Below, piece after piece: positions 483 to 56,465 of a stretch of 64,000 nucleotides of DNA; the first letter of the stretch is position 1, and the number at the start of each line of letters is the position of its first letter. Made by a program: the position numbers and the translations under genes. This DNA comes from a phage. Location of the stretch: NCBI GenBank assembly GCA_033759635.1, contig GCA_033759635.1_4528.1; one strand, given 5' to 3'. The notes below the pieces were generated by a model. That model worked only from the letters and a program-made list of their open reading frames with translations. It had not been told where the DNA came from and made no database searches.

Positions 483-781
483 TGGCTCAAATCCTATCAG
501 GCTTTGGAACTCATTATGAAGCATCTCGACGCATAACTGAAAGCAATCCTTTTGGCCTTGTTCCGAAGCACAAGAAAATTCAAAGCCTTGATGACTTTGA
601 GAATCGCCTATGGGCCCTCTTTAATGAGTACAAGGCATATCTGAAAGAAGACGCTGACGATTGTCTTGAAGAAGATGAGATTGCGTATTACGAACAACGC
701 CTTGAACAGCTCAAGAACTTCCACCAGGTTCGTGACGAAGTATCTAAAGCAGTTAAAAAGTTAATTCCTTTCAAAGAGTAG
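482..781 (+). CDS. hypothetical protein (99 aa)
   Basis: Frame of track ORF 440..781; start refined to ATG 482 (TAATG overlap with upstream stop). Confidence 0.5.
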
Positions 782-837
782 TTTACTTCTCCTCTAGTTG
801 TGTTACTATAGACCTGTCAACTAGAGGAGAAATCAAA
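781..837 (+). promoter_or_regulatory. early promoter / stem-loop cassette upstream of regB
   Basis: GTTTAC 781-786, 17-nt spacer, TACTAT; 10-bp IR cctctagttg (791-800) / caactagagg (818-827), right arm overlaps SD. Confidence 0.6.
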
Positions 838-1296
838 ATGACTATCAATTCAGACGTTTTTATCCGCCGTAATAAACTCCGTCGAATCTTTGAAACGGAG
901 TTCCGCAAAATAAATGCCGGTATAAAAGATGCTGCAAAGTCTCTTGGACTACCAGGCTTTCATATCAAGTATTCTCAACATCTCTTAGATCGTGCCATCC
1001 AGAGAGAAATAGATGAGAATTACGTTTTTGAATTATTTCGTAAAGTAAAAAATCATGTTAAAGAAGTTGCAGAATTTTTATCAATGCCGGCACGTCCAGA
1101 TGTTGATGAAGATTTTGTCGAAGGTGTCGAATATCGCCCAGGCCGTTTAGAAATAACTGATGGAAATCTTTGGTTAGGACTTACAGTCTGTCGCGAAAAT
1201 CCAGCATTCAAAATGAAGACTCTTCAATGTAGAATGGCTATTATTAACAGTAAACGACTACCAGGAAAAGCTTCTAAAGCAGTGATTAAAATCTAG
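838..1296 (+). CDS. regB: RegB-like sequence-specific endoribonuclease
   Basis: 152 aa; N-terminus MTIN..VFIRRNKLRR and C-terminus QCRMAIINS.RLPGKASKAVIK match recalled T4 RegB; SD GAGGAGAAA upstream. Confidence 0.75.
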   Translation: MTINSDVFIRRNKLRRIFETEFRKINAGIKDAAKSLGLPGFHIKYSQHLLDRAIQREIDENYVFELFRKVKNHVKEVAEFLSMPARPDVDEDFVEGVEYRPGRLEITDGNLWLGLTVCRENPAFKMKTLQCRMAIINSKRLPGKASKAVIKI

Positions 1297-4410: not shown

Positions 4411-4466
4411 GTTTACTTCTCCTCAGGTTGTGTTATAGTAGTCCTTACTTACTAGAGGAGAACGTT
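4411..4466 (+). promoter_or_regulatory. early promoter / stem-loop cassette
   Basis: GTTTAC 4411-4416; IR ttctcctc (4417-4424) / gaggagaa (4455-4462) pairs the SD. Confidence 0.55.
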
Positions 4467-4646
4467 ATGACACGTAAAGAAAAGATTTCTAAGTTGATGT
4501 TTTTGATTGAAGAGTACGCTAATGCGGTATCTGATTGGGAAAATGCTCATGGTTGCGAAGATGGAGACATCGACATTAACAGAGCTATGAAAAAGATGGC
4601 CGACGCCCACACTGAATTGCAAATGTATGTTAACGAGATTATGTGA
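4467..4646 (+). CDS. hypothetical protein (59 aa)
   Basis: Start refined to ATG 4467 directly after SD GAGGAGAA of promoter cassette. Confidence 0.5.
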   Translation: MTRKEKISKLMFLIEEYANAVSDWENAHGCEDGDIDINRAMKKMADAHTELQMYVNEIM

Positions 4647-4653
4647 GGATATT

Positions 4654-4860
4654 ATGCTTTACGATTATACTGGAAAATCTGAAGACGGTGTGCTTGAACT
4701 TTTACCTGAAAGCGCTGAAGATGATGATATGGTGGCAATGTTTTGTAAAAATGGTCCTGGGGATAAGGGATGGATTTATCTTCGCCAAGAAAATGACCTA
4801 ATTGTTTTAGACCCAAAACAAGTTGAAGAACTTTATCAACATTTAAAACACAATCGGTAG
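4654..4860 (+). CDS. hypothetical protein (68 aa)
   Basis: Start refined to ATG 4654 with SD GAGGA. Confidence 0.5.
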   Translation: MLYDYTGKSEDGVLELLPESAEDDDMVAMFCKNGPGDKGWIYLRQENDLIVLDPKQVEELYQHLKHNR

Positions 4861-4917
4861 TTTACATCTTGGTAGGACTATGTTATAGTAGTCCTACCAA
4901 AACAAACGGAGAACAAA
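4860..4917 (+). promoter_or_regulatory. early promoter / stem-loop cassette
   Basis: GTTTAC 4860-4865; 10-bp IR ggtaggacta / tagtcctacc bracketing TGTTATAGTA. Confidence 0.55.
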
Positions 4918-5028
4918 ATGAAACTTTTGCTTATCGCTTATGTTGTAGTACAATACAATTATCCGATGTTTACTTATAACATGGTAAACGGCATAGTGAA
5001 TCTTATTGAAACGAGTATGGTAAAATGA
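4918..5028 (+). CDS. small hydrophobic ORF (36 aa)
   Basis: Not in track (below size cut-off); ATG 4918 preceded by ACGGAGAACAAA; read codon by codon to TGA 5026-5028. Confidence 0.35.
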   Translation: MKLLLIAYVVVQYNYPMFTYNMVNGIVNLIETSMVK

Positions 5029-9010: not shown

Positions 9011-9066
9011 GTTTACAAGGTCTATGGTTATGTTATTATAGACCTATCAACTACTGGAGGTAAAAC
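9011..9066 (+). promoter_or_regulatory. early promoter / stem-loop cassette
   Basis: GTTTAC 9011-9016, 17-nt spacer, TATTAT 9034-9039; IR aggtcta / tagacct. Confidence 0.55.
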
Positions 9067-9594
9067 ATGAACGCTAAAGATATTTTCAACCTGGTAAATT
9101 ATAACGACGGTAAATTTAAATCTGAAGCACAAAGCAAGTTCTTTAATGACGTTGCTTATGATAACGAGATTACCGTGGACGGAGGTCAGATTTTCAAATC
9201 TCGCTGGAATTGGATTGTTATCATCGATTCAGTTGGAATTGTGGAAGTCTACAAAAACACTAACAAAAAACGTACATTATTCTGGTCTCGTGAAACTAAC
9301 GAGCAGTACAAAAAGGATAAAGCGTCTCGTTTATCCAAAGTAACCCAGGAAGATATCGAGTTTATCAAGAAAGATATCGAGATGTACGAAAATTTAATCG
9401 CTGAAGACCAGGCAGTACTCGACAAGTTTGATGAAATTAAAGCTTCTCGTGAAATCCCTGACTTCATGAAAGAAACAGTAAACGAACGATACGCTCTCAC
9501 TTCAGAACGTATTGCAAACTATACAAAACAGAAAGCAGAACGTATTAGTACTCTTCGGAAATTTGAAGAACGTTTAAAGACGGTTCACGCATAA
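9067..9594 (+). CDS. hypothetical protein (175 aa)
   Basis: ORF track; downstream of promoter cassette with SD GGAGG. Confidence 0.6.
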   Translation: MNAKDIFNLVNYNDGKFKSEAQSKFFNDVAYDNEITVDGGQIFKSRWNWIVIIDSVGIVEVYKNTNKKRTLFWSRETNEQYKKDKASRLSKVTQEDIEFIKKDIEMYENLIAEDQAVLDKFDEIKASREIPDFMKETVNERYALTSERIANYTKQKAERISTLRKFEERLKTVHA

Positions 9595-9656: not shown

Positions 9657-10652
9657 ATGAGCATTACATCTGATGCGGTAAAACATGAAATTAACGGTTT
9701 ATGTGCTTCACAGATTAAAGTGTGGTTTAAAGACCATAACGATCGCAGAGCACTTAATTATGAGCAAATTGCTATCCAAGTTCATCAATTACTGACTAGT
9801 AAATTTGATTTTCATATGCCGCCTGAAATCTATACTAATCTGCCGCGAGCACTTATTAAAGCGTGTAAAGGTTATGGAAAATCAATGGCTGATGGAATCT
9901 TCAGCGCGCTGAATAAACTTAACGTTCTGTCGATGATTAACTCTAACAATATCCTGCGTAATCTAGGACGTACTGATTTGTTCGGTCGTGAACAGTGTAA
10001 AATGCCTTTGAAATGGATTGTTGCTCATCTTAACGAGAACCAAACACGTTTTATGGCCGTAACAGCACGTTTACAAATGGGCCTAGATCGTCAGATGAAC
10101 TTTAAAACTCATCCACGTTATTCAGGTTCAACAGACTTTTATAAATGCGAGCTTCAAAAGGTCGCTGGCAAAACTGTCTTAGTAGTTCGTGTAACGTTTG
10201 AAGGACGACGTCAAGGATATTTTGACCTAATCGGCTCTGGTCTTAAACATTGTGGATTTATCGACGAAGTTGATATCAAGCGAGACGGCATTGGATACCG
10301 TATTGGGTATGTTTGTACTCTTAAAGAAGAGATTTCAGGACCAGCTCCAGGACTAAAAGACGTTAGATATAAAGACGAGCTCGTTGAAGAAATAAAAGAA
10401 GTTGAATATGATATCAACCAAGAAGATGCTCTTAAAGACCTTATTGATGAACTGAACCAAGATGTTATTCCTGTTCAGAAATTTGAATCAAAACATGCTG
10501 AGCAAATCAAATACTTTGAAGCTTTGATTAACGAACTTAATGTAACTATTCAACAGACTGACGATGAAATCTCACGATTAGCAGGCTTAAATGGTAAAAA
10601 TAAAACAGAACGAGCTAATCTTATTCAAGTAGTAAAACTTCTTAAGGAATGA
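9657..10652 (+). CDS. hypothetical protein with C-terminal coiled coil (331 aa)
   Basis: ORF track; heptad-like C-terminus; SD GAGGAAA. Confidence 0.6.
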   Translation: MSITSDAVKHEINGLCASQIKVWFKDHNDRRALNYEQIAIQVHQLLTSKFDFHMPPEIYTNLPRALIKACKGYGKSMADGIFSALNKLNVLSMINSNNILRNLGRTDLFGREQCKMPLKWIVAHLNENQTRFMAVTARLQMGLDRQMNFKTHPRYSGSTDFYKCELQKVAGKTVLVVRVTFEGRRQGYFDLIGSGLKHCGFIDEVDIKRDGIGYRIGYVCTLKEEISGPAPGLKDVRYKDELVEEIKEVEYDINQEDALKDLIDELNQDVIPVQKFESKHAEQIKYFEALINELNVTIQQTDDEISRLAGLNGKNKTERANLIQVVKLLKE

Positions 10653-10707
10653 TGTACAACCAAGGATGGTTGGAGTATAATAAATTTTTCAACATGAGGA
10701 ATATAAA
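10652..10707 (+). promoter_or_regulatory. promoter cassette, family B
   Basis: ATGTACAACCAAGGATGGTTGGAGTATAAT; -10 TATAAT 10675-10680. Confidence 0.5.
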
Positions 10708-11667
10708 ATGGCTTTTATTACACGTAGAGAACTTATCAAAGAATTTACCTCGAACGCATATACTCCAGGACCTAATCCTATCCGTATGCCTGTAAAAACT
10801 CCTGAAGAGATTGAGGAAGTCTGTTCGTATTATGGGATTACTTCTCGTATGTTTACTCAATTTGAATGTGTTACTAACACGCCCGTTAAAGAGTTCATTA
10901 AAAATGGTGAGTTCAGCCGTTTACTAGCCAAACAGAAACTTCGTAATTTTTGTATTGGCGGTGAAGGACAATATTTCGCTAAGCAGTTCCGGAATAACCT
11001 TAACAATCTGATGGCCATTGCTTCTCGTATTCGTCCTCAAGCAATTAACATGAAACATTTGAAATATACTTACGATAAGTTGGAAATCATGGTTATCAGT
11101 GAGAACGAGTTCACTCTCACGTATAAACCTAAGAACGATAACGTTGCTCGTGTATTCCACCAAGCGTTAGAAGTTTTAGGTGATAATATCCACCAGATTA
11201 AAGCAATTTATTCTCGTGAGCTTAATATTATCGACCCTATCAAGAATAAGGGCCATATCGCTATCCAGGCTCGTGTATCTATTGGTAAAAAGGTTCCTGC
11301 GCCATGGTGGCACAAAGACTCTGAATACTATCAAAATCTTAAAAAGGAAAATGCAACGTTCGAAGGCAATATCACAGCAACACCAGTCGGTAATGCAGAG
11401 GTTCTAAGCGCATATTCTCCGACACAACCCGGTATGTTTAAAGGTTTGCCAAATGTGTGCAAACTGTCGGCAGTAAAACTAAATGTTTCTAATGACCTTC
11501 TTCCGGCCGAAGATTATCATTACAACCAAATCAAGGCTACTGTAGACCAACTGTCCGTTGAACTTGACAAAGCACAAGCTAAGCTTCGTGATGCTCAAAG
11601 TGTTGTAACGAATCTCCAGTTGCAGTACTCTAAACTTTTTAACGCAATGAATGCGTTAAAATCATAA
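10708..11667 (+). CDS. hypothetical protein with C-terminal coiled coil (319 aa)
   Basis: ORF track; preceded by GTaCAACCAAGGATGGTTGGAGTATAAT cassette. Confidence 0.6.
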   Translation: MAFITRRELIKEFTSNAYTPGPNPIRMPVKTPEEIEEVCSYYGITSRMFTQFECVTNTPVKEFIKNGEFSRLLAKQKLRNFCIGGEGQYFAKQFRNNLNNLMAIASRIRPQAINMKHLKYTYDKLEIMVISENEFTLTYKPKNDNVARVFHQALEVLGDNIHQIKAIYSRELNIIDPIKNKGHIAIQARVSIGKKVPAPWWHKDSEYYQNLKKENATFEGNITATPVGNAEVLSAYSPTQPGMFKGLPNVCKLSAVKLNVSNDLLPAEDYHYNQIKATVDQLSVELDKAQAKLRDAQSVVTNLQLQYSKLFNAMNALKS

Positions 11668-11671
11668 AACG

Positions 11672-11729
11672 GTTTACAACCAAGGATGGTTGGAGTATAA
11701 TGAATCTATCTTAACGAGAGGAAAATATT
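11672..11729 (+). promoter_or_regulatory. promoter cassette, family B
   Basis: GTTTACAACCAAGGATGGTTGGAGTATAAT; -10 at 11695-11700. Confidence 0.55.
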
Positions 11730-12680
11730 ATGACACGTTCACATTACATTGAATACTTTGCCGGTCTTATCGCTAACGTTCATGCCCAGCGTGCTGTTGG
11801 TGCACTAGGATTTGATGTTCCACACCGAGATGTAGTAAGTGGTATTCTTCGCGATTTTGGTACATACACAGGTCAAGAAAATCATATCTGTAAAGATACT
11901 CAGAATGCGTATTCTCATTCATTAGGGACACTGCTTCAATGGTTCAAACGTTCTCGTTTATTATCTTCTACTGTAGCTCGCGATAACATTAAAAACTTTA
12001 TGAAACCGAGCTTTATTAAATCTGTGACATCTAAAACTGATTTGGTTGAATTCACTATTATTAATGATGTTAAAAAGACTCATTTGGCTGATTGGTTATC
12101 TACCATTCCTGAAACTAAATTCGCTGATAAATTTGCTTGTGAATTCAATAACCAAGTGAATATGCTTTTTAAACATTCTCGTAAATTATTCACGGGCGGT
12201 GATGGTCGTACAAATAAAGTTCATGTTAAAGATTGGGTTACTGCAGTATTCAAACCGACCGGTAATGGTAACGCATCATTATCAATTGATATCCAGGTTC
12301 CTTATTACTACTCACGTAATCTCGGTACCATGAAAGCTGAAGAAATTAATAAGCATAACAAAACCGTTCGTTCATTGTCTTATAAACTTATTACATTGTT
12401 AGAGACTATGGATGTTGTTGAAACGTTCGACGAATCCGAAGATAACGGTTCAATGTTATACAGTTCTCGCACCCGAATTAAGCTGAAGAACCCTAACGAG
12501 TATAAACTTAAGACTATTAAAGAACCTAAAGTAGAAAAAGTTGACAACTTGAGCGAAGAACGTGAATATCTCAAATCTCGTCTGAAAGAAGTCGAAGCCC
12601 AGATTAAAGAACAGACTAAATCGTTAAAAGCTCTGAATGCGAAAGCGGACGGTTTACGAAATGCCATTGAGGTGTTATAA
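11730..12680 (+). CDS. hypothetical protein with C-terminal coiled coil (316 aa)
   Basis: ORF track; preceded by GTTTACAACCAAGGATGGTTGGAGTATAAT cassette. Confidence 0.6.
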   Translation: MTRSHYIEYFAGLIANVHAQRAVGALGFDVPHRDVVSGILRDFGTYTGQENHICKDTQNAYSHSLGTLLQWFKRSRLLSSTVARDNIKNFMKPSFIKSVTSKTDLVEFTIINDVKKTHLADWLSTIPETKFADKFACEFNNQVNMLFKHSRKLFTGGDGRTNKVHVKDWVTAVFKPTGNGNASLSIDIQVPYYYSRNLGTMKAEEINKHNKTVRSLSYKLITLLETMDVVETFDESEDNGSMLYSSRTRIKLKNPNEYKLKTIKEPKVEKVDNLSEEREYLKSRLKEVEAQIKEQTKSLKALNAKADGLRNAIEVL

Positions 12681-18852: not shown

Positions 18853-18909
18853 GTTTACATCCTCGATAGATATGTTAAGATTAAACCATCTGCTATAGAG
18901 GAAAACAAA
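18853..18909 (+). promoter_or_regulatory. early promoter-like element
   Basis: GTTTAC 18853-18858, 17-nt spacer, TAAGAT. Confidence 0.45.
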
Positions 18910-19092
18910 ATGACAATTGAAGATAAAGAAATTAAGGTTGACCAGTACTATTCTGTCAACGGTAATGCAGTACAGATAACCAGAGTTTCAAGCCTGGATG
19001 TTTGGTACCGTTCAATCAAATATCCGGAAATTGGTGAAATGCTTTGTGACCGTAGTATCTTCTGTTCAATTGCGAAGGAAATTAAGCCATGA
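18910..19092 (+). CDS. hypothetical protein (60 aa)
   Basis: Start refined to ATG 18910 after SD GAGGAAAA. Confidence 0.45.
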   Translation: MTIEDKEIKVDQYYSVNGNAVQITRVSSLDVWYRSIKYPEIGEMLCDRSIFCSIAKEIKP

Positions 19093-19979: not shown

Positions 19980-20032
19980 GTTTATGATGGTAGGAAGATA
20001 ACACTTCTTCCTACCAATTTGAGGAGAATATC
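19980..20032 (+). promoter_or_regulatory. stem-loop cassette upstream of 20033 gene
   Basis: GTTTAT 19980-19985; 10-bp IR ggtaggaaga (19989-19998) / tcttcctacc (20006-20015); SD GAGGAGAA. Confidence 0.45.
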
Positions 20033-20272
20033 ATGGAACAAGAATTAGACATTATTACATCGAAAAAACGTCTTGAAGTTGTAGTGAATGGCTCAACTAT
20101 TAAGTTTGTATATGACACTTTAACTGATGCTATTACCGTTAGTTGTGGTGGAAAGGCTTTTAGTCTAGATTCTACTGAAAACAAATACCCGTTCTATAAA
20201 GGTATCTTTGATATGGGTGTTGATATCAGTGTTCGTCAAGCAAACTATTTACATTATCTTATCACTAAATAA
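20033..20272 (+). CDS. hypothetical protein (79 aa)
   Basis: ORF track; SD GAGGAGAA. Confidence 0.5.
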   Translation: MEQELDIITSKKRLEVVVNGSTIKFVYDTLTDAITVSCGGKAFSLDSTENKYPFYKGIFDMGVDISVRQANYLHYLITK

Positions 20273-24095: not shown

Positions 24096-25780
24096 AATCA
24101 TTTAAATTAAATCGTGTTCGTTATCAAAACATCATGTCGGTAGGTGGGAATCCTATTGATATCCAATTAGATAAAGTCCAAAAGACATTAATCACCGGTA
24201 AAAATGGCGGTGGTAAATCTACGATGTTAGAAGCCATCACTTTCGGACTTTTCGGTAAACCATTTCGTGATGTTAAGAAAGGACAAATCATTAATAGCAC
24301 GAACAAGAAAGAGCTCTTAGTTGAGCTTTGGATGGAATTCGATGATAAAAAATACTTCATTAAACGTGGCCAAAAGCCCAATATTTTCGAAATCTCCGTT
24401 GACGGTGTTCGTCTTGATGAATCTGCCAGCAGTCGTGACTTCCAAGAAGAATTTGAACGTAGCATCGGAATGTCATACGCGTCTTTTAAACAGATCGTTG
24501 TGCTTGGGACGGCAGGGTATACCCCTTTCATGGCTCTTAGCACCCCTGCTCGCAGAAAACTTGTCGAAGACCTTTTAGAAGTTGGCACACTCGCTGAAAT
24601 GGATAAAATCAATAAGTCTCAAGTTCGAGAACTTAATTCCCAGGGACAAGTTCTCGATGCCAAGAAAGATGGTGTTATCCAACAAATTAAGATTTATAAT
24701 GAGAATATCGAACGTCAAAAGAAATTATCTGGTGATAATGTAGCGCGTCTACAGAATATGTATGACGACCTAGCCAAAGAAGCTCGTTCATTAAAATCAG
24801 AAATTGAAGAAGCTAACGAGCGTCTACTTAATATCGTTCTTGACGAAGACCCTACTGAGGCATTCAACAAGATAGGACAAGAAGCATTCTTGATTAAATC
24901 TAAAATTGACTCATATAACAAAGTTATTAAGATGTATCATGATGGCGGTACATGTCCTACTTGTGCATCACAGTTGCACCAGGGTGATCCTATTGTCTCT
25001 AAGATTACCGATAAGCTTCATGAATGTAATCACTCATTCGAGCAACTTACCTGTCACAGAGATAATCTGAGTGTCCTAGTGGACGAATATAGAGCTAATG
25101 TTAAGACTAAGCAGGACCTTGCATCTGATATTCGTACCAAGAAACAAGCAATGATTGCCACTATTGATAAAGCTAAGAAAGTTAAAGCTGCAATAGAGCA
25201 AGCCTCGGCAGAATTTATCGACCATGCCGATGAGATAGCTTTGCTTCAAAAAGAACTTGATAAAATCATTAAAACAAAATCAGATATCGTTCTTGAAAAA
25301 TACCATCGTGGTATTATCACAGATATGTTAAAAGATTCTGGTATTAAAGGTGCTATCATTAAAAAATATGTGCCTCTGTTCAACAAGCAGATTAACCATT
25401 ATCTTAAAATCATGGAAGCTGATTACGTGTTTTCTATTGATGAAGAATTCAATGAATCTATAAAATCACGTGGCCGTGAAGAGTTCAGTTATGCTTCATT
25501 TAGTCAAGGTGAAAAGGCACGTATCGATATCGCATTGTTGTTTACATGGCGAGATATTGCTGAAAAAGTCTCTGGTGTTAGAATCAATACATTAATTATG
25601 GACGAAGTCATGGATTCCGCGACTGATTCTGAAGGTATTAAAGCTATTTCAACAATTCTTAACTCTCTAACCGATGCAAACGTGTTTATAATTAGTCACA
25701 GAGACCATGACCCACAAGCTTATGGACAACATCTTCAAATGAGCAAAGTTGGACGATTTACTGTGATGACTGTTTCATAA
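24092..25780 (+). CDS. 46: recombination endonuclease subunit gp46 (Rad50/SbcC-like ATPase)
   Basis: 562 aa; Walker A GKNGGGKST, central coiled coil with CPTC zinc hook, C-terminal LIMDEV Walker B. Confidence 0.9.
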   Translation: MKSFKLNRVRYQNIMSVGGNPIDIQLDKVQKTLITGKNGGGKSTMLEAITFGLFGKPFRDVKKGQIINSTNKKELLVELWMEFDDKKYFIKRGQKPNIFEISVDGVRLDESASSRDFQEEFERSIGMSYASFKQIVVLGTAGYTPFMALSTPARRKLVEDLLEVGTLAEMDKINKSQVRELNSQGQVLDAKKDGVIQQIKIYNENIERQKKLSGDNVARLQNMYDDLAKEARSLKSEIEEANERLLNIVLDEDPTEAFNKIGQEAFLIKSKIDSYNKVIKMYHDGGTCPTCASQLHQGDPIVSKITDKLHECNHSFEQLTCHRDNLSVLVDEYRANVKTKQDLASDIRTKKQAMIATIDKAKKVKAAIEQASAEFIDHADEIALLQKELDKIIKTKSDIVLEKYHRGIITDMLKDSGIKGAIIKKYVPLFNKQINHYLKIMEADYVFSIDEEFNESIKSRGREEFSYASFSQGEKARIDIALLFTWRDIAEKVSGVRINTLIMDEVMDSATDSEGIKAISTILNSLTDANVFIISHRDHDPQAYGQHLQMSKVGRFTVMTVS

Positions 25781-25782
25781 AC

Positions 25783-25834
25783 GCTTTAACACGATGTGGT
25801 TATAATGACCACATCAAATTAAATGGAGAACAAC
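25783..25834 (+). promoter_or_regulatory. candidate middle promoter with IR around -10
   Basis: cGCTTTA then TATAAT 25801-25806; IR gatgtggt (25793-25800) / accacatc (25808-25815). Confidence 0.4.
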
Positions 25835-26023
25835 ATGGAGTATTCAACCGGACAACATCTTCTCGTTGTCCCTGAAATTAAAAAATATGTTTTGACCAAT
25901 ACGTTTTCAGGTGAAGAACATATTGTTACTGAACAAATGCTCAAATCTGCTTTTAAAGATGAGTATAATAAAATAATGTCTAATCGCAATTCCGCATGGA
26001 CAGTTACTGACTTCTACGAATAA
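25835..26023 (+). CDS. hypothetical protein (62 aa)
   Basis: Start refined to ATG 25835 after SD GGAGAA. Confidence 0.5.
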   Translation: MEYSTGQHLLVVPEIKKYVLTNTFSGEEHIVTEQMLKSAFKDEYNKIMSNRNSAWTVTDFYE

Positions 26024-26035
26024 GAGAGAAATAAT

Positions 26036-26452
26036 ATGTTTACTACTGCTAAAGGTTTCACTGCTGCTGATCTGAAAGTTACTTCTATCCGTACTGACGC
26101 TAACCCGCATAACCATAATCGTGTTCGTAAAGCATGGGTCCTGCATTGTGATGACGCAAGTGCTAAAAAGCTTCAATCTTTGCCACAAGAAACTCGTTTT
26201 ATGATTTATGGTTTTATTGATAACGATGTATCTGATATGTGGATTCATCTGATGCGTAAGCACTATAAAGATTCTATTGAAGCCGGCGGGAAAATCGTTC
26301 TTGATAAAGACGGTTCTGAGCGTCTAGAAGATTTCTATTGTGTTGATGCCGACGAACAACTAATCGCAGCCGGCGAAATTGTTGCTTCTAAAATTCCAGA
26401 ATATATTGAATCACTGCCTGAAGCTATTAAAAAGCAGATGGTTGCTGCTTGA
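26036..26452 (+). CDS. hypothetical protein (138 aa; positional candidate for RpbA)
   Basis: ORF track; located between gene 46 and gene 45 as T4 rpbA; sequence identity not verified. Confidence 0.5.
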   Translation: MFTTAKGFTAADLKVTSIRTDANPHNHNRVRKAWVLHCDDASAKKLQSLPQETRFMIYGFIDNDVSDMWIHLMRKHYKDSIEAGGKIVLDKDGSERLEDFYCVDADEQLIAAGEIVASKIPEYIESLPEAIKKQMVAA

Positions 26453-26457
26453 TAATT

Positions 26458-27347
26458 ATGAATTTAATATATCTTATAACCTTTTATAATCGTGAGATTA
26501 AAAATGAATACCCTTGTTATTATATAGGTTCTAAAGTTTCGTGTCATTTTAATGGAAAGGATATTATTGAAGATTCTACCGGTAAAATATATACCGGTAG
26601 TGTTAATTCCTCGTATTCTCCTTTATATAACAGATTAATAGACCAAGGCGAATATTCTGTAAAATTTTAGGCGAAACCACATTAGACCCTAGAAGAATAG
26701 AAAGACTATTCCAACTCAATGTTAAAGCCGTTTCAAATGAAAAATATTTTAATAAGGCTTATGCTAACGAGAAGTCTAGAATATCAGCTAAAGGATATGC
26801 ACCGTATAAAAATTTAAAAACAGGCAAAATAGTAAAACTTTCTAAAAACGAAATAAACGAAGATTACGTCGGTGTTAGAAAAAATTGCAAATTGTCGGAG
26901 AATCATTTAAACGCAATTAGAGAATTTCAAAAAACATATTGGACCAAAGAACGAAGAGAGAAAGTTTCTATTCGTTCTAAAAAAATGTTTAGCGATAGAG
27001 ATTTTGCTTTAAAATTTAAAGATATAATGAATTCTCCTAATGTTAAAGATAAAATAAAAATATCTAAAACATTGTATTGGTCTAAACCTGAAAATAGAGC
27101 AAAGGCCTCTATCGCAGCTTCGAAAAGAAATGCAACCAAAGAATTTAAGGATAAATTCAGAAAATCTAAAGCTAGAGGTACATGGATATTTCATGAACAA
27201 AAATTAAAGGAATTGTGGATTGCTTTAGGAAAACCAAGTTATATTACATTTAGAAAACATGCAATTCAGCATGGTTTTAATGATGAATCATACCAAGGTG
27301 CTATCCGGTCTTGGACAAATTATTATGCTAATAGGAAACCTAAATGA
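26458..27347 (+). pseudogene. GIY-YIG homing endonuclease-like gene (seg-like), reading frame disrupted
   Basis: N-terminal fragment (26458..26670) has IYLITF..YYIGS..YTGS motifs; a different frame is open from 26631 to 27347 and encodes a basic Lys-rich C-terminal region; the frames overlap without a single continuous ORF. Confidence 0.45.
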
Positions 27348-42473: not shown

Positions 42474-42532
42474 GTTTACATCTTCCTCTAGGCATGATAT
42501 GATGTACTTACACTAACCAAGAGGAAAACATT
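42474..42532 (+). promoter_or_regulatory. early promoter-like element
   Basis: GTTTAC 42474-42479, 18-nt spacer, TATGAT 42498-42503; SD AGAGGAAAA. Confidence 0.5.
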
Positions 42533-42907
42533 ATGAATATGTCTCAAGCAATTTTTACTGCAATCACCGAAAACACAACTGTTGAAGTAGTTTCTCCGCT
42601 GGCAACCTACGTTATTCTTGCTCCTAAATCTATTGTATCTCGTATGGAAAACATGGGCAAACGTATCGTACAAATCGTTGGATCCGGAAATCAAAAACTT
42701 GATTATCTGCGAACCATCAAAGCTTATGAACATTTCCAACTCGAAAAAGGTTCTCCTATCCAGGTAGAACTCGTAAATGGTGATATCGTTCGAGCAATGT
42801 TCCATCATTTCTATGCATTGAATGACCCATCTAAAGCGGTTCGTTTAATTGCATATGACGCAAACCAAAGTGAAATCAACGCAGATGTATCTAAATTACA
42901 TTTTTAA
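42533..42907 (+). CDS. hypothetical protein (124 aa)
   Basis: ORF track; SD AGAGGAAAA. Confidence 0.55.
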   Translation: MNMSQAIFTAITENTTVEVVSPLATYVILAPKSIVSRMENMGKRIVQIVGSGNQKLDYLRTIKAYEHFQLEKGSPIQVELVNGDIVRAMFHHFYALNDPSKAVRLIAYDANQSEINADVSKLHF

Positions 42908-42962
42908 GTTTACTTCTCCAGTAGTTGTGTTATTATAGACCTATCAACTACTGGAGAACAAA
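42908..42962 (+). promoter_or_regulatory. early promoter / stem-loop cassette
   Basis: GTTTAC 42908-42913, TATTAT 42931-42936; perfect 12-bp IR ctccagtagttg (42916-42927) / caactactggag (42946-42957), right arm overlaps SD. Confidence 0.6.
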
Positions 42963-43280
42963 ATGAAAACCATCGATTGTAAAGCAAAATTTAAGATTTT
43001 TTATCACGGTTCAAGTAGTTCAGCTAACATCGAAAACATGCTTTGTCCTCCTGAAGAAACAGGAGTTCTGTCTGAAACTGGACGTAAGAAAAACTTGGAT
43101 CGTGTATTCTTTACTGAAGATATCGGTTTAGCAAAGATTTATGCAGGACGAGCAGCACGCTCTTATGGAGGTGAACCACGTCTCTATCGAGTAATTTCTC
43201 CGGTAGATGTAGTTCAAATGAATGATACTAAAGGTGCTACAGTTTATCACGCTGAATGGGCATTTTGCGAGGAAATATGA
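42963..43280 (+). CDS. hypothetical protein (105 aa) with H-G-S motif
   Basis: ORF track; FYHGSSS near N-terminus. Confidence 0.5.
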   Translation: MKTIDCKAKFKIFYHGSSSSANIENMLCPPEETGVLSETGRKKNLDRVFFTEDIGLAKIYAGRAARSYGGEPRLYRVISPVDVVQMNDTKGATVYHAEWAFCEEI

Positions 43281-43465
43281 GCAAATTAACTAAAATTACT
43301 TTTATTGGCTGGTTTAAAAGCGGTGAGATGTTCACTAAAGATATCATGTTATCAGGTGATCGTGAAGAAATCGAGTGGGTTGCGGTGCAACTCGCCGAAG
43401 TGAACAGTGCACTTGTTAAAGCATTTGTTAATGATGAGAAAGTTTTTGAAGCTGATTTTCGATAA
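43277..43465 (+). CDS. hypothetical protein (62 aa)
   Basis: Start refined to ATG 43277 after SD GAGGAAAT. Confidence 0.45.
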   Translation: MSKLTKITFIGWFKSGEMFTKDIMLSGDREEIEWVAVQLAEVNSALVKAFVNDEKVFEADFR

Positions 43466-43478
43466 TTTTAAAATAACT

Positions 43479-43536
43479 GTTTACAAGCACCACATACTGT
43501 GTTACTATCTTTTTATCAACTACAGAGGAAATTGAA
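43479..43536 (+). promoter_or_regulatory. early promoter-like element
   Basis: GTTTAC 43479-43484, TACTAT 43504-43509; SD AGAGGAAA. Confidence 0.5.
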
Positions 43537-44219: not shown

Positions 44220-44278
44220 GTTTACATTATAGATGGACTATAGTATAGTAGTCCTATCAAATCAACTAAGGAGTTAAA
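44220..44278 (+). promoter_or_regulatory. early promoter / stem-loop cassette upstream of sp
   Basis: GTTTAC 44220-44225; IR ggacta / tagtcc bracketing TAGTATAGTA; SD AAGGAG. Confidence 0.5.
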
Positions 44279-44572
44279 ATGAAAAAGTTATCATTGGCAG
44301 CAATCCTACTTGCAGTATCATGTGCACCGGCTCCAGTTACGGCAGGTTATGATAAAGACCTCTGTGAGTGGTCAATGACTGCAAATCAAGAAGATGTTGA
44401 ACAACAAATCTTCTCTGATATCATGAACATCACTAAACGAGACCGTCCTAATATGGTTAATAAAGTTGTTGAACAACTTAAGTCTGGCGGTATCATGCAG
44501 TACAACTATGTTTTGTATTGTGACCCTAATTTCGATAACAAAGATATCGTAACCGAAATCACAGGTGAATAA
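44279..44572 (+). CDS. sp: spackle periplasmic protein (superinfection exclusion / lysozyme inhibitor)
   Basis: 97 aa with signal peptide; AGYDKDLCEWSMTA...KRDRP...LKSGG.MQYNYVLYCD matches recalled T4 Sp. Confidence 0.7.
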   Translation: MKKLSLAAILLAVSCAPAPVTAGYDKDLCEWSMTANQEDVEQQIFSDIMNITKRDRPNMVNKVVEQLKSGGIMQYNYVLYCDPNFDNKDIVTEITGE

Positions 44573-49413: not shown

Positions 49414-49574
49414 AAGAGAAATTTAAAGAGAAATTCTTACTAGAAATCAAGGAAAAAGACTTTGAGACATGGTACCGAATGGTGAAAGGGTTGACATTGC
49501 TTTTTAAAGCATCCTTATTCATGTTAGAACAACCCGGTCCTGATGGACCTTTAGTAGGAAAGCTTAAAAAGTAG
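49410..49574 (+). CDS. small ORF (54 aa)
   Basis: Not in track; ATGA overlap; read codon by codon to TAG 49572-49574. Confidence 0.35.
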   Translation: MKEKFKEKFLLEIKEKDFETWYRMVKGLTLLFKASLFMLEQPGPDGPLVGKLKK

Positions 49575-49629
49575 TTTACATTCCCTCCTCTCGTGTTATG
49601 ATAGGCTTATCTTTAAATGGAGGTCTATC
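49574..49629 (+). promoter_or_regulatory. early promoter-like element upstream of ModB-like gene
   Basis: GTTTAC 49574-49579, 17-nt spacer, TATGAT 49597-49602; SD AATGGAGGT. Confidence 0.5.
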
Positions 49630-50211
49630 ATGACATGTCAATCTGAACTTCAAGAACGTGAATATCTCGCAGCACTAATTGATGATAAATTCACTAAACA
49701 AGAACAAAACATTCTCTGGGCTTGCACTGATTATAAGGAAGACCCAGATTTCCACTATGAATTAGACCATCTTGTTCGTAAGCATATGACTTCTACAGTA
49801 CCAGTAGAACTCTATCGTGGTGTAACTCCAGAAGAAGTAGAACGTCTTTCCCTTCTTTCTGTTGGATGCCATTGGTCTCCTGGACGAGTAACATCGTTCA
49901 CAACTGATTTCAGTACAGCTCGTCAATTCTCTGGGAGATGGGAATATCAGACGTACACTATTCTTAGTCTCAGGAATGCTCCATTCATTTTTGATTACTA
50001 CCAAAACATGGTTAACATTGTACTCGCCGGAAAGAACCCTAAGCATGTTATGGAAGAAAAACGTGTTGACGTCCTAGATATGATTGAATCTGAACAAGAA
50101 TACATGGTCTCAGGTATCTCTAGATTTGAGATTGTAGAAATTGAAGACTTAGAATATGACCCTTTATCTCGACTATACAAAATCATTCATTTAAAAATGT
50201 TGAATTTTTAG
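49630..50211 (+). CDS. ADP-ribosyltransferase (R-S-E type), ModB-like by position
   Basis: 193 aa; LYRG (Arg), SFTTDFSTA (STS-like), EQEYMV (catalytic Glu) motifs; paralogue of next gene. Confidence 0.6.
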   Translation: MTCQSELQEREYLAALIDDKFTKQEQNILWACTDYKEDPDFHYELDHLVRKHMTSTVPVELYRGVTPEEVERLSLLSVGCHWSPGRVTSFTTDFSTARQFSGRWEYQTYTILSLRNAPFIFDYYQNMVNIVLAGKNPKHVMEEKRVDVLDMIESEQEYMVSGISRFEIVEIEDLEYDPLSRLYKIIHLKMLNF

Positions 50212-54092: not shown

Positions 54093-54152
54093 GTTTACAA
54101 CCAAGGATGGTTGGAGTATAATGAATCTATCTTAACCAAACAGGAAAACATT
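54093..54152 (+). promoter_or_regulatory. promoter cassette, family B
   Basis: GTTTACAACCAAGGATGGTTGGAGTATAAT (TATAAT 54117-54122). Confidence 0.55.
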
Positions 54153-54647
54153 ATGAATATCAATACCACGGCTACTTACATCCTGAAAGATGAAAAACAA
54201 ATCAACTGGTACGGTGCTTCAGTGCGAGCTTATGAAAAGTTTTGTGAAATTTTAGGTGCCACTCAAGGTAATAGTTTCACTATTGTTAACTTCATCAAAC
54301 AAGTTGAAGGCCCTTGGTTATTCTTAGAAATTAAAAATTCATATGGTACAATTTCTACTACCGCCATTCCAAGCACCGACTTTGAACTGTTGATTGAAGA
54401 AGTAGAACCCGTTAAAGATATCTGTATTGATATGGATATCACTTGTATGTACGGTACTCTGATTAAGCCTATTGAGCCTACTGATTTGTTGTGTAAATAT
54501 GTTTCAATTCGACGCCCATTCGCTGGTCCAGTAAATGGATGGGTAACTGACCAATGGATTGAAGACGGTGTTGAACTTCTGAACGTTGTTCATGCAGGTG
54601 ATTTTAGTGTAGTTCCACGTAGTGCTGTGGTTAATATCCTTAATTAA
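54153..54647 (+). CDS. hypothetical protein, member 1 of tandem paralogue family (164 aa)
   Basis: C-terminal GWVTDQWIEDGVELLNVVHAGDFSVVP shared with the next two genes. Confidence 0.55.
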   Translation: MNINTTATYILKDEKQINWYGASVRAYEKFCEILGATQGNSFTIVNFIKQVEGPWLFLEIKNSYGTISTTAIPSTDFELLIEEVEPVKDICIDMDITCMYGTLIKPIEPTDLLCKYVSIRRPFAGPVNGWVTDQWIEDGVELLNVVHAGDFSVVPRSAVVNILN

Positions 54648-55174: not shown

Positions 55175-55594
55175 ATGAATATTGTAAATCTCTCTACAGG
55201 TGATTACGTATATGTATCTGTTGCTTCTCGCTCTAAAGTTGCCGGGAAGTTGGTTGAAGTTCTTTCTGTGAGTGATCCGGTTTTTGGTCGTAACCAAGTT
55301 AAAGTTCGTGATGCTAATGGTAATATTGGCTACGTCTCAAGTCAGTTCATTGAACCAGAAGAAAAAGCGTTCAAATGGAAACTGTGCAGGTCTGTTTTAG
55401 TTGTAAAAGACCATGAATTCACTATTGCTGCGGCAACTGATGGAACGCCATGGAAAACTAAGCAAATCGCCGGATTTATTAGCGACCGTTGGGTAGAAGA
55501 TGGTGTTAAGCTTTATAACATCGTTTTCGCTGGTCAGTTCATGGTAGTTCCTGAATTCCAAATTAAAAAATATTGTCCAGCATCTTTTGCATAA
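55175..55594 (+). CDS. hypothetical protein, member 3 of tandem paralogue family (139 aa)
   Basis: VASRSKVAGKLVEV and FISDRWVEDGVKLYNIVFAGQFMVV. Confidence 0.55.
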   Translation: MNIVNLSTGDYVYVSVASRSKVAGKLVEVLSVSDPVFGRNQVKVRDANGNIGYVSSQFIEPEEKAFKWKLCRSVLVVKDHEFTIAAATDGTPWKTKQIAGFISDRWVEDGVKLYNIVFAGQFMVVPEFQIKKYCPASFA

Positions 55595-55598
55595 AGTT

Positions 55599-55655
55599 GT
55601 TTACTTCTCCTCTGGTTTTGATATTATAACCCCATATCAACCAGAGGAGAATAAT
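55599..55655 (+). promoter_or_regulatory. early promoter / stem-loop cassette
   Basis: GTTTAC 55599-55604; perfect 13-bp IR ttctcctctggtt (55605-55617) / aaccagaggagaa (55639-55651) that includes the SD. Confidence 0.6.
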
Positions 55656-56180
55656 ATGTTAGTTTACCGCGTAGAACGTAGTTTTTGCACTCAACGTGAA
55701 TCTTTACCGGGAGTTGCTATCGAAGATGGTAAAGCCGTCAGAATTTGGGAAACCTCCTGGAATAAAGAACCTCGTTCGCCATACGGTTGGTCGGGCACCG
55801 ACAACTCTGAAGAAACATGGGAGTTCCTTGATAAGCATGGAATACTCTCAGGTAACTTCTACCATCACGGCGACAACTATAATGTCCCTAATCGTCCTAC
55901 AGTAAATGAAGACAAACTCCTTGAACAAAATATCTTAAGATACTATAGAATTGAGCACACATTTGAATTGAACGAAGATTGGGCTCAAGGGTTCTATTTT
56001 GGATTTGAAAGTGTTGACGCGGTTTATGCATGGTTTGATGACCAGGTGGATGTTGAACTCTTGAAAGCTAAAGGATACTACATCGCGGTCTATGAAGCAC
56101 CTGATTTCATCCTCGGAAGTTGTCAATTAATGTTTAGACGTTCATTGGCAGAACAAGTTGATTTTATTTTGCTAAAATGA
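55656..56180 (+). CDS. hypothetical protein (174 aa)
   Basis: Start refined to ATG 55656 after SD AGAGGAGAA. Confidence 0.55.
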   Translation: MLVYRVERSFCTQRESLPGVAIEDGKAVRIWETSWNKEPRSPYGWSGTDNSEETWEFLDKHGILSGNFYHHGDNYNVPNRPTVNEDKLLEQNILRYYRIEHTFELNEDWAQGFYFGFESVDAVYAWFDDQVDVELLKAKGYYIAVYEAPDFILGSCQLMFRRSLAEQVDFILLK

Positions 56181-56237
56181 TGTACAACAACTATGGTCTA
56201 TGATACTATAGACCTATCAAAACAAGAGGAGAATATT
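56181..56237 (+). promoter_or_regulatory. early promoter / stem-loop cassette
   Basis: TGTACA 56181-56186; IR ggtcta / tagacc around TGATACTA; SD AGAGGAGAA. Confidence 0.45.
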
Positions 56238-56465
56238 ATGAAACGTCAAATCATTAAAAACGTAACTACTGATTCAAATATCGATGAGTTTGAAGATGTT
56301 CTGTTTAATCCTGATTTAGTTGTTGTACAGAAAAACTGGACCGAATTTTTATGCTACACCGAAGTGGTTTACGTTTACGAAAAACTCGGCGATGAAATGC
56401 CTATCTATGGTATCTTCCGTGAAATCACTGAAAACGGTACAACTTATTGGAAGGAAACTTACTAA
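56238..56465 (+). CDS. hypothetical protein (75 aa)
   Basis: Start refined to ATG 56238 after SD AGAGGAGAA. Confidence 0.45.

Follow-up and report, generated by a model that had tools for sequence, protein, structure and literature searches.

Several genes of bacteriophage T4 are preceded by a hairpin that masks the ribosome-binding site (RBS) and contains a promoter, an arrangement established for e, soc, 49, I-TevI/II/III and segB as well as for mobE of phage Aeh1 (PMC3014915, PMC2988022). The promoters in these known cases are late promoters, and the genes "are all late genes" (PMC2988022). The inhibitory hairpin of T4 gene e has been validated experimentally and gives 100-fold repression (PMC3014915). 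Here, we describe hairpins of this type around early promoters in a phage contig of 64,000 nucleotides (GCA_033759635.1_4528.1, GenBank assembly GCA_033759635.1), which was analyzed over its whole length and is called the window below. The focal element is a promoter cassette at positions 42908-42962, in front of the homologue of RB69ORF040c and the gene dmd. Early promoters nested in hairpins masking a Shine-Dalgarno (SD) sequence are not mentioned in the T4 reviews consulted, including PMC3014915 and PMC2988022.

Two other described systems are relevant to this locus. Composite cassettes that join an early promoter to a stem-loop are known from T4-type phages as promoter-early stem-loop (PeSL) elements and are regarded as modules of regulation and recombination (PMC2839356, PMC4122927). 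Their definition calls for an AT-rich region and a sigma-70-like early promoter (17+/-1 nt separating its two hexamers) together with a stem-loop and an SD/ATG. Five subclasses are distinguished by the place of the stem-loop, which can lie upstream of the -35 or on it, within the spacer, over the -10 or immediately ahead of the start site (PMC2839356). Termination or attenuation and recombination have been proposed as their roles, not sequestration of the SD; a stem-loop of RB49 cut lacZ expression like a strong terminator, and mini-circles formed between PeSLs, whereas RB69-type phages were not treated (PMC2839356, PMC4122927). The initial annotation of the window had correctly referred to these cassettes as regulatory modules, but the SD masking it proposed is absent from their published roles. 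The second system is the nuclease RegB, which cuts single-stranded GGAG in A-rich SDs of early mRNAs, its own included, and is blocked by structure (PMC1702504, PMC3014915). It needs an 11-nt single-stranded site with GGAG and A-rich sequence (PMC1702504).

The focal cassette (Table 1) had been annotated as a promoter-containing inverted repeat reaching the SD, and both its layout and its fold confirm this description, except that the perfect stem has 14 bp rather than 12 bp. An AT-rich stretch (42888-42907) precedes the -35, and CAAA separates the 3' arm from the ATG at 42963. The sequence GGAGAACAAAA in the 3' arm resembles the RegB target consensus (PMC1702504). The stem has a minimum free energy (MFE) of -21.7 kcal/mol (z = -5.2), and none of 200 shuffled sequences folded as well. 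When the 17-nt spacer alone was shuffled (p <= 0.002), its complementarity to the SD region proved to be specific. The focal hairpin is real and non-random; a chance origin was ruled out by these shuffles and by the swap controls described below. The predicted transcription start, at about 42943, sits in the loop, 2 nt ahead of the 3' arm, and the transcript predicted from it folds at just -1.1 kcal/mol.

The strength of masking was expressed as the free energy needed to open positions -17 to +3 around the start codon, compared between read-through RNA (beginning 60 nt upstream of the -35) and the predicted own transcript. At the focal site the opening cost was 16.4 kcal/mol in read-through RNA and 1.9 kcal/mol in the own transcript (+14.5 kcal/mol), as anticipated from the proposal that own transcripts lack the 5' arm whereas read-through transcripts mask the SD. 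Four other cassettes carry comparably strong masks in silico, with extra read-through costs of +10.3 (781), +9.6 (4411), +16.3 (49574) and +19.7 kcal/mol (55599). Three more are moderate (18853, +5.9; 42474, +4.8; 54093, +4.4 kcal/mol), and hairpins that enclose the -10 alone add little (4860, 0.0; 44220, +0.2; 56180, +1.1; 9011, +2.2 kcal/mol).

These values come from a census of 23 early-promoter cassettes in the window, located with a simple gene model and the promoter pattern GTTTAC, 17-18 nt, TAnnnT, a leader of about 20 nt, SD and ATG. Thus, strong RBS masks precede only five of the 23 cassettes' genes (regB, mobD.2a, ORF040c-dmd, modB and motB.2), and the earlier count, which put the sites with a 3' arm across the SD at more than fifteen, is wrong. 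The nine examples it cited divide accordingly: the stems at 781, 4411, 42908 and 55599 mask the SD, whereas those at 4860, 9011, 19980, 44220 and 56181 leave it out, which makes the initial interpretation an over-generalization. The core said to be shared by several cassettes does recur: six copies of TGTTATTATAGACCTATCAA are present when up to 3 mismatches are allowed, whereas 0 would be expected.

With the same parameters the T4 gene e hairpin folds at -14.9 kcal/mol, and the masking stems of the window (-21.6 to -23.5 kcal/mol) are 7-9 kcal/mol more stable. Like e, soc, 49 and I-TevI, the masked cassettes sequester the SD and/or the AUG on transcripts initiated upstream (in silico here), and the internal promoter is placed so that own transcripts, from the predicted start, would miss the 5' strand. 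The internal promoter in those T4 genes is a late one (TATAAATA, gp55), whereas here it is of the immediate-early sigma-70 type with a GTTTAC -35. Furthermore, regB, modB, motB.2 and the dmd operon are early genes, and the masked RNAs would originate at early (or middle) promoters nearby. Translation would thereby be confined to the early-promoter burst, unlike the delay of translation in the late cases.

We therefore consider that the hairpin is a translational mask with an immediate-early promoter inside, working like the e, soc and I-TevI hairpins, and we give this reading a probability of roughly 0.6. An early (sigma-70) promoter is nested in the hairpin loop, with the -35/-10 spacer serving as the 5' arm and the SD region of the next gene as the 3' arm. 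Transcription from the own promoter would start about 2 nt before the 3' arm and leave a leader of about 20 nt unstructured, so that ORF040c-dmd would be translated. Transcripts from upstream would carry both arms; their nearest source is likely the promoter at 42474, the closest one upstream of the focal cassette, with no terminator between. Such read-through RNA would fold into the 14-bp stem (about -22 kcal/mol) and close the GGAG to the 30S subunit, and likewise to the GGAG-specific nuclease RegB. Since the SD is hidden in read-through RNA, translation would be tied to firing of the own promoter and insulated from upstream transcription. The same device would serve regB, mobD.2a, modB and motB.2 in the window. 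The device is a conserved twist on two T4 devices described before and not a new kind of element. The cassettes are at the same time members of the repeated PeSL population, with shared cores that may serve as recombination sites.

A terminating ribosome covers about 10-12 nt downstream. At three of the five strong masks the upstream stop abuts the -35: TAA at 42905-42907 is followed by the 5' arm at a distance of 7 nt, TAG at 779-781 overlaps the -35 of the regB cassette, and TAA at 55592-55594 lies 11 nt before the arm. From the footprint geometry, a ribosome terminating there would reach the anti-SD end of the arm. In translational coupling of this kind, the downstream gene in read-through RNA would be translated only if the 5' arm is melted by a ribosome completing the upstream gene, and expression from long transcripts would be coupled rather than silenced. 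Of a 14-bp stem, however, such a ribosome would melt just the outermost 3-5 pairs, and the 5' arm of the modB type lies 20 nt beyond the stop. At 4411, 18853 and 42474 the upstream gene ends at least 30 nt, and up to about 400 nt, before the -35. Coupling as the main function is therefore very unlikely in our view.

Evidence for selection on the masking hairpin was obtained from related cassettes. IMG/VR was scanned with a pattern keyed on the 5' arm only (GTTTACTTCTCC-N8-TGNTA), which retrieved cassettes from many T4-type phages. In these cassettes the variable arm positions were matched downstream (AGTAG/CTACT, TCTAG/CTAGA, TCTGG/CCAGA, TCATG/CATGA, TGTAG/CTACA), and variants of the SD were tracked by variants of the anti-SD (TTCTCC/GGAGAA, ATCTCC/GGAGAT, TTCCTCC/GGAGGAA, ACCTCC/GGAGGT). 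Among 14 masking cassettes, picked because they have hairpins, 8 of the 14 pairs were altered on both sides. The covariation score of this set was 0.27 as compared to 0.14 after shuffling (reached in 0 of 500 shuffles), and slid registers scored far lower. A swap test with 59 non-redundant cassettes showed that each spacer is more complementary to its own SD region, or its own +1 region, than to those of the other cassettes (p = 0.0005 each). Interior mismatches flanked by Watson-Crick pairs in distinct stems were G·U in 14 cases and A·C in 4 (one-sided p = 0.015), an excess expected of a fold of the sense strand and not of a symmetric duplex structure.

The last observation bears on the proposal that the inverted repeat acts at the DNA level, as a cruciform, a single-stranded DNA hairpin or a palindromic protein site around the -10, and regulates the promoter or recombination. 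The arms flank the -10 in all hairpin classes, and in the PeSL work it was speculated that the stem-loop is the target of a DNA-binding or recombination protein (PMC2839356). On the other hand, complementarity is conserved and the arm sequences are not, so that there is no common protein site, and loops of 17-33 nt disfavour cruciform extrusion. The G·T bias on the sense strand is unlike duplex-symmetric structures, although it is compatible with single-stranded hairpins of that strand. We regard a DNA-level element as extremely unlikely.

The masking design is also present in T4, at regB, denV, motB.2 and modB. The T4 regB hairpin has 15 bp including two G·U pairs (-23.1 kcal/mol, z = -5.3). 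Orthologues of regB from five lineages (55-98% protein identity) all have an SD-masking hairpin with different arm sequences. RNAalifold returned no consensus helix for MAFFT-aligned regB orthologues because the arm offsets differ between lineages and the alignment loses their register; a chimera matrix was therefore used. In this matrix the mean MFE was -21.3 kcal/mol with own arms and -12.5 kcal/mol with swapped arms, and the true pairing was the best of 120 permutations. At modB, the pairing of the -10/discriminator region with the SD-AUG region is kept in the window phage, T4 and JS98-like phages with different sequences. Locus searches with the single proteins of motB.2 and modB retrieved close relatives only, so that a deep orthologue series is available just for regB and ORF040c. 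Valerie et al. in 1986 reportedly noted potential stem-loops before ipIII, ipII, denV and orf61.9 (= regB).

The position of terminators provides further evidence. Where an intrinsic terminator lay <=75 nt upstream, one of 20 cassettes had a strong mask; among cassettes lacking such a terminator, 29 of 113 did (Fisher p = 0.03). The mean cassette MFE was -8.4 kcal/mol behind a terminator as compared to -12.6 kcal/mol elsewhere (p = 0.004; 133 distinct cassettes). Thus, the masking logic gains evolutionary support from covariation, the G·U bias, conservation in T4 and the depletion of masks behind terminators, and we have high confidence that the masking structure itself is under selection.

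Depletion of hairpins behind terminators would fit an attenuator equally well. This leads to the explanation closest to the published sense of a PeSL, in which the stem-loop is mainly an attenuator or terminator, the cassette is a substrate for recombination and the overlap with the SD is incidental. The focal cassette shares much with PeSLs: it is a compact intergenic module with an AT-rich region, a strong sigma-70-type early promoter, a stem-loop, SD and ATG; such modules are numerous in the genome (23 in 64 kb) and share cores, and the focal copy is flanked by two ORFans (phrog_10668 and phrog_2110). The window also contains stem-loops in the spacer (10652, 11672, 54093) and on the -10 (4860, 9011, 44220, 56180), and SD-sparing hairpins both coexist with masking ones and replace them. 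Besides the published definition, the RB49 stem-loop and the mini-circles (PMC2839356, PMC4122927), the repeated core, the presence of chimeric cassettes and the indel or replacement edges at the regB cassette and at 43479 favour this explanation. The ORF040c cassette of JS98-like phages looks chimeric: its 5' half is of the denV type, its 3' half is of the ORF040c type, and the two meet in the invariant core TATAGACCTATCAACT. Exchange of this kind is predicted by the PeSL model, and it breaks the complementarity of the arms.

Other features do not agree with this explanation. The arms of the focal stem straddle the -10 and reach the SD, which none of the five published stem-loop positions does. 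The masking stems of the window are AU-rich, lack U-tracts and end exactly on the SD, and the anti-SD covaries with the SD. The hairpins of regB, modB and motB.2 are kept by compensatory change at fixed loci without gene shuffling. PeSLs cluster in plastic regions beside ORFans, whereas cassettes of the window stand before these conserved genes too. Just two of nine indels or replacements between the window and RB69 abut a cassette. No terminator signature was found at the focal stem, which is followed by CAAAATG and not by a T-run. A generic promoter/terminator scan made no terminator-like call on the + strand at the window cassettes; its promoter-like matches were no commoner than in shuffled sequences, and it does not discriminate promoters. 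The genuine terminators of the window are GC-rich UUCG hairpins with T-runs. An intrinsic terminator was rejected on sequence grounds, since the stems are not followed by a U-tract, and an RNase III site is unlikely because the stems have only 13-15 bp. Taken as a whole, the attenuator and recombination account appears unlikely to us.

RegB offers another explanation, in which the hairpin hides the GGAG from RegB (and from RNase E/G decay) in long polycistronic RNAs, while promoter-proximal mRNAs stay RegB-sensitive and short-lived. RegB is inhibited by secondary structure (PMC1702504, PMC3014915), and the masked SDs GGAGAACAAAA, GGAGAAUAAUA and GGAGAAAUCAA, which combine GGAG with A-rich sequence, fit its consensus. 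The best-conserved hairpin is that of regB itself, a known self-target at its own SD (PMC3014915); T4 motB.2 and modB are documented RegB substrates, and modB RNA is structured in vitro (PMC1702504). However, the mask of the modB type buries the AUG too, modB and some other genes use GAGG or GGAGG, which are poor RegB sites, and T4 denV is masked although its GGAG is naturally RegB-resistant (PMC1702504). RegB control acts in trans on single-stranded sites, whereas the hairpin is a cis element whose relation to RegB is not described in PMC1702504 or PMC3014915. Masking of the GGAG necessarily blocks ribosomes too, and a role in RegB protection is therefore inseparable from translational masking by sequence alone. 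As the primary function, a RegB shield seems distinctly unlikely.

Several observations count against the translational mask. A ribosome that terminates on the upstream gene, whose stop is 7 nt away from the 5' arm, could open part of the stem, and Durand et al. found that RegB cleavage in vivo can precede folding (PMC1702504). The strong mask at the focal locus is specific to RB69-type phages: in JS98-like phages the cassette of the ORF040c orthologues lies behind a terminator and forms no more than 5-6 bp (TTCTCC/GGAGAA), other orthologues have a terminator and a -10 but no 5' arm, and those of Aeromonas phages have a -10-only hairpin that spares the SD. Moreover, the nrdC.8 homologue, with the same leader as the focal cassette, has a -10-only hairpin in the window (9011-9069) and an SD-masking hairpin (ATCTCCAGTAG / CTACTGGAGGT) in the JS98-like orthologue (L161/L241). 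This interchange points to a hairpin of some kind across the -10 as the feature that may be under selection, and it is not explained by the SD-mask model alone. The data sets behind the swap-test, G·U and terminator results contain related sequences, part of which were retrieved with the 5'-arm pattern. Finally, the literature consulted yielded no 5'-end mapping, structure probing or translation assay for this phage or for the early-promoter hairpins of T4.

The 15-nt leader TATCAACTACTGGAG was also used to scan IMG/VR; 11 of the matches listed had a usable promoter context, and most others were chance matches. Among the matches listed, the leader was associated with three different masking 5' arms, one of which is the RB69 arm with two A-to-G changes that convert A-U to G·U pairs. 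It also occurred with a -10-only arm (9011 in the window) and without an arm where a terminator lies immediately upstream. The T4 dmd gene has its own early promoter (L107, 20553-20615, minus strand) in a 12-15-bp hairpin around the -10 with one U·G pair (-21.7 kcal/mol) and a free SD, whereas dmd of RB69-type phages rides on the ORF040c cassette through an ATGA overlap.

The 23 cassettes of the window were grouped by hairpin geometry (Table 1). Their layout is nearly fixed, with an upstream stop at or near the -35 and a spacer of 17-18 nt; the leader measures about 20-25 nt and the gaps 55-65 nt. Promoters of the GTTTAC type are on the + strand in 19 cases and on the - strand in two. A spacer-dependent hairpin was detected in nine of the 23 at p < 0.05. 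Class A comprises SD-masking stems with loops of 17-30 nt, strong at 781, 4411, 42908 and 55599 and weaker at 18853 and 42474, and class A' is represented by 49574, where the -10/discriminator region pairs with the SD-AUG region. Class B includes short-loop hairpins that enclose only the -10 (4860, 9011, 44220 and 56180), with the 3' arm at the transcription-start region, 15-24 nt before the ATG, and the SD outside; the T4 dmd and Aeromonas-phage hairpins mentioned above are of this class. In class C (10652, 11672, 54093) a 6-bp hairpin lies wholly within the spacer of a repeated cassette of about 45 nt, and the copies at 11672 and 54093 are identical across these ~45 nt, from the -35 through the leader. 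With its stem-loop lying between -35 and -10, class C has the classical PeSL geometry. In about seven cassettes a meaningful hairpin is absent. Searched over its full length at gathering thresholds, the window matched no Rfam family.

Table 1. Elements of the focal cassette, the genes behind it and the other hairpin cassettes of the window.
Feature	Position	Strand	Details
-35 hexamer GTTTAC, focal cassette	42908-42913	+	T4 early-promoter type; directly after TAA of RB69ORF041c homologue
5' arm, focal cassette	42914-42927	+	TTCTCCAGTAGTTG; inside -35/-10 spacer; contains anti-SD TTCTCC
Extended -10, focal cassette	42928-42936	+	TGT + TATTAT; in hairpin loop
Segment between -10 and 3' arm	42937-42944	+	AGACCTAT
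Predicted own-transcript start	42943 (+/-2 nt)	+	~7 nt past -10, placed from sigma-70 / T4 early-promoter geometry
3' arm, focal cassette	42945-42958	+	CAACTACTGGAGAA; contains SD GGAG 42953-42956
RB69ORF040c homologue	42963-43280	+	phrog_2110, function not assigned; served by focal cassette
dmd	43277-43465	+	Pfam Dmd; start overlaps ORF040c stop (ATGA); served by focal cassette
SD-masking cassette, regB	781-840	+	arms 787-800 / 818-831, 14 bp, -21.6 kcal/mol; -10 804-809; ATG 838
SD-masking cassette, mobD.2a homologue (DUF7438)	4411-4469	+	imperfect TTCTCCTC / GAGGAGAA plus extension
Masking cassette, modB	49574-49635	+	49594-49607 (-10/discriminator) pairs with 49619-49635 (SD-to-AUG); -22.5 kcal/mol
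SD-masking cassette, motB.2	55599-55658	+	arms 55605-55617 / 55639-55651, 13 bp perfect, -23.5 kcal/mol
Weaker SD-masking cassette, RB69ORF041c homologue	42474-42535	+	TTCCTCT.GG / CC.AGAGGAA
Weaker SD-masking cassette	18853-18912	+	TCCTC.ATAG / CTAT.GAGGA
Class B hairpin, 13 bp	4860-4920	+	4869-4881 / 4888-4900; only -10 enclosed, SD not in stem
Class B hairpin	9011-9069	+	9018-9028 / 9035-9045; SD essentially free; leader matches that of focal cassette
Class B hairpin, upstream of sp	44220-44281	+	44232-44241 / 44248-44258; SD free
Class B hairpin, 8 bp	56180-56240	+	56195-56202 / 56207-56214; weak -35 ATGTAC; SD free
Class C cassettes	10652-10710, 11672-11732, 54093-54155	+	GTTTAC (or ATGTAC)-AACCAAGGATGGTTGGAG-TATAAT

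Two further hairpins were noted outside these classes. The site at 19980-20035, initially annotated as a promoter cassette, does have an 11-bp hairpin (GGTAGGAAG...CTTCCTACC) after a GTTTAT -35-like hexamer, but its -10 is absent; it resembles the degraded 'half PeSLs' of Comeau et al. 2014 (PMC4122927). Upstream of 45.2 (25775-25845), a MotA-box middle promoter (CGCTTTA-N12-TATAAT) lies inside a 10-bp hairpin (GAUGUGGUUA / UGACCACAUC, -15.2 kcal/mol) that encloses the -10 and has the same form as class B, which suggests a middle-promoter ('PmSL'-like) counterpart of the -10-only hairpins. The segment TATAGACCTATCAAC(T), which starts at the end of the -10 and extends into the leader, is near-invariant at 781-840, 9011-9069, 42908-42965 and 56180-56240, and likewise in the T4 denV cassette (L106) and in JS98-like phages. 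It may be a part of the early-promoter consensus (discriminator or initial transcribed region) or a recombination core.

A 4-kb stretch around the focal cassette shares 98% identity with Escherichia phages p000v and RB69 (Mosigvirus), with weaker matches to hundreds of T4-type phages. Following the RB69 annotation, the gene order in the window is vs/regB, nrdC, 55, 47-46, 45-43, uvsX, 41, dmd, imm, 61, 56, soc, modA/B, dda, motB and 39 to rIIA, with every gene on the + strand, and the gene behind cassette 781 was assigned as regB (Pfam REGB_T4, E = 9e-69). This order identifies the window, by sequence comparison, as the classical early/middle region of a T-even genome of an RB69-like Mosigvirus. 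Upstream of regB, an ORF at 482-781 (phrog_2037) replaces RB69ORF117c, and the match to RB69 begins again precisely at the regB cassette's -35, as would be expected of a cassette-bounded gene replacement. Gene 61.4 (about 204 nt), located between dmd and imm.1 in RB69 (L001, 22458-22662), is absent here, and the deletion edge (43458) precedes the -35 of cassette 43479 by about 20 nt. In the interval from rpbA to gene 45, the window has about 900 nt (26449-27347), whereas the RB69 counterpart has 66 nt. The insert contains two ORFs, the first of which (26449-26670, 73 aa) matches the N-terminal 50 residues of the 210-aa homing-endonuclease family phrog_7504 (E = 5e-9). The insert has the look of a seg-type homing endonuclease insertion that has been split or has decayed.

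As a tentative generalization, which we consider possible but doubtful, regB, modB, motB.2 and denV of Tevenvirinae (and ORF040c-dmd of RB69-type phages) may follow a rule of translation from the own promoter only, in which the hairpin silences the cistron on foreign transcripts and shields its GGAG from RegB. If so, shut-off of the early promoters would automatically end synthesis of these proteins despite continued read-through transcription, and ribosome-free cistrons could invite Rho, yielding the attenuation reported for PeSLs. Such a rule would be an unrecognized layer of the early-to-middle switch and would explain mismatches between the timing of transcripts and of proteins.

If masking works as proposed, promoter identity would be linked to translatability, including that of RegB, whose dosage is known to be tightly controlled, and of the antitoxin-like Dmd operon. 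The hairpins would make a cis contribution to the rapid end of early protein synthesis in T4-type phages, for which explanations are still incomplete, and would allow dense early promoters to coexist with read-through. The annotation and engineering of T4-like therapeutic phages would be affected as well, as cassette swaps or upstream insertions could silence or unmask neighbouring genes. The PeSL concept would be refined, with at least one class of these elements acting as translational devices, and not as terminators, kept by compensatory evolution at fixed loci.

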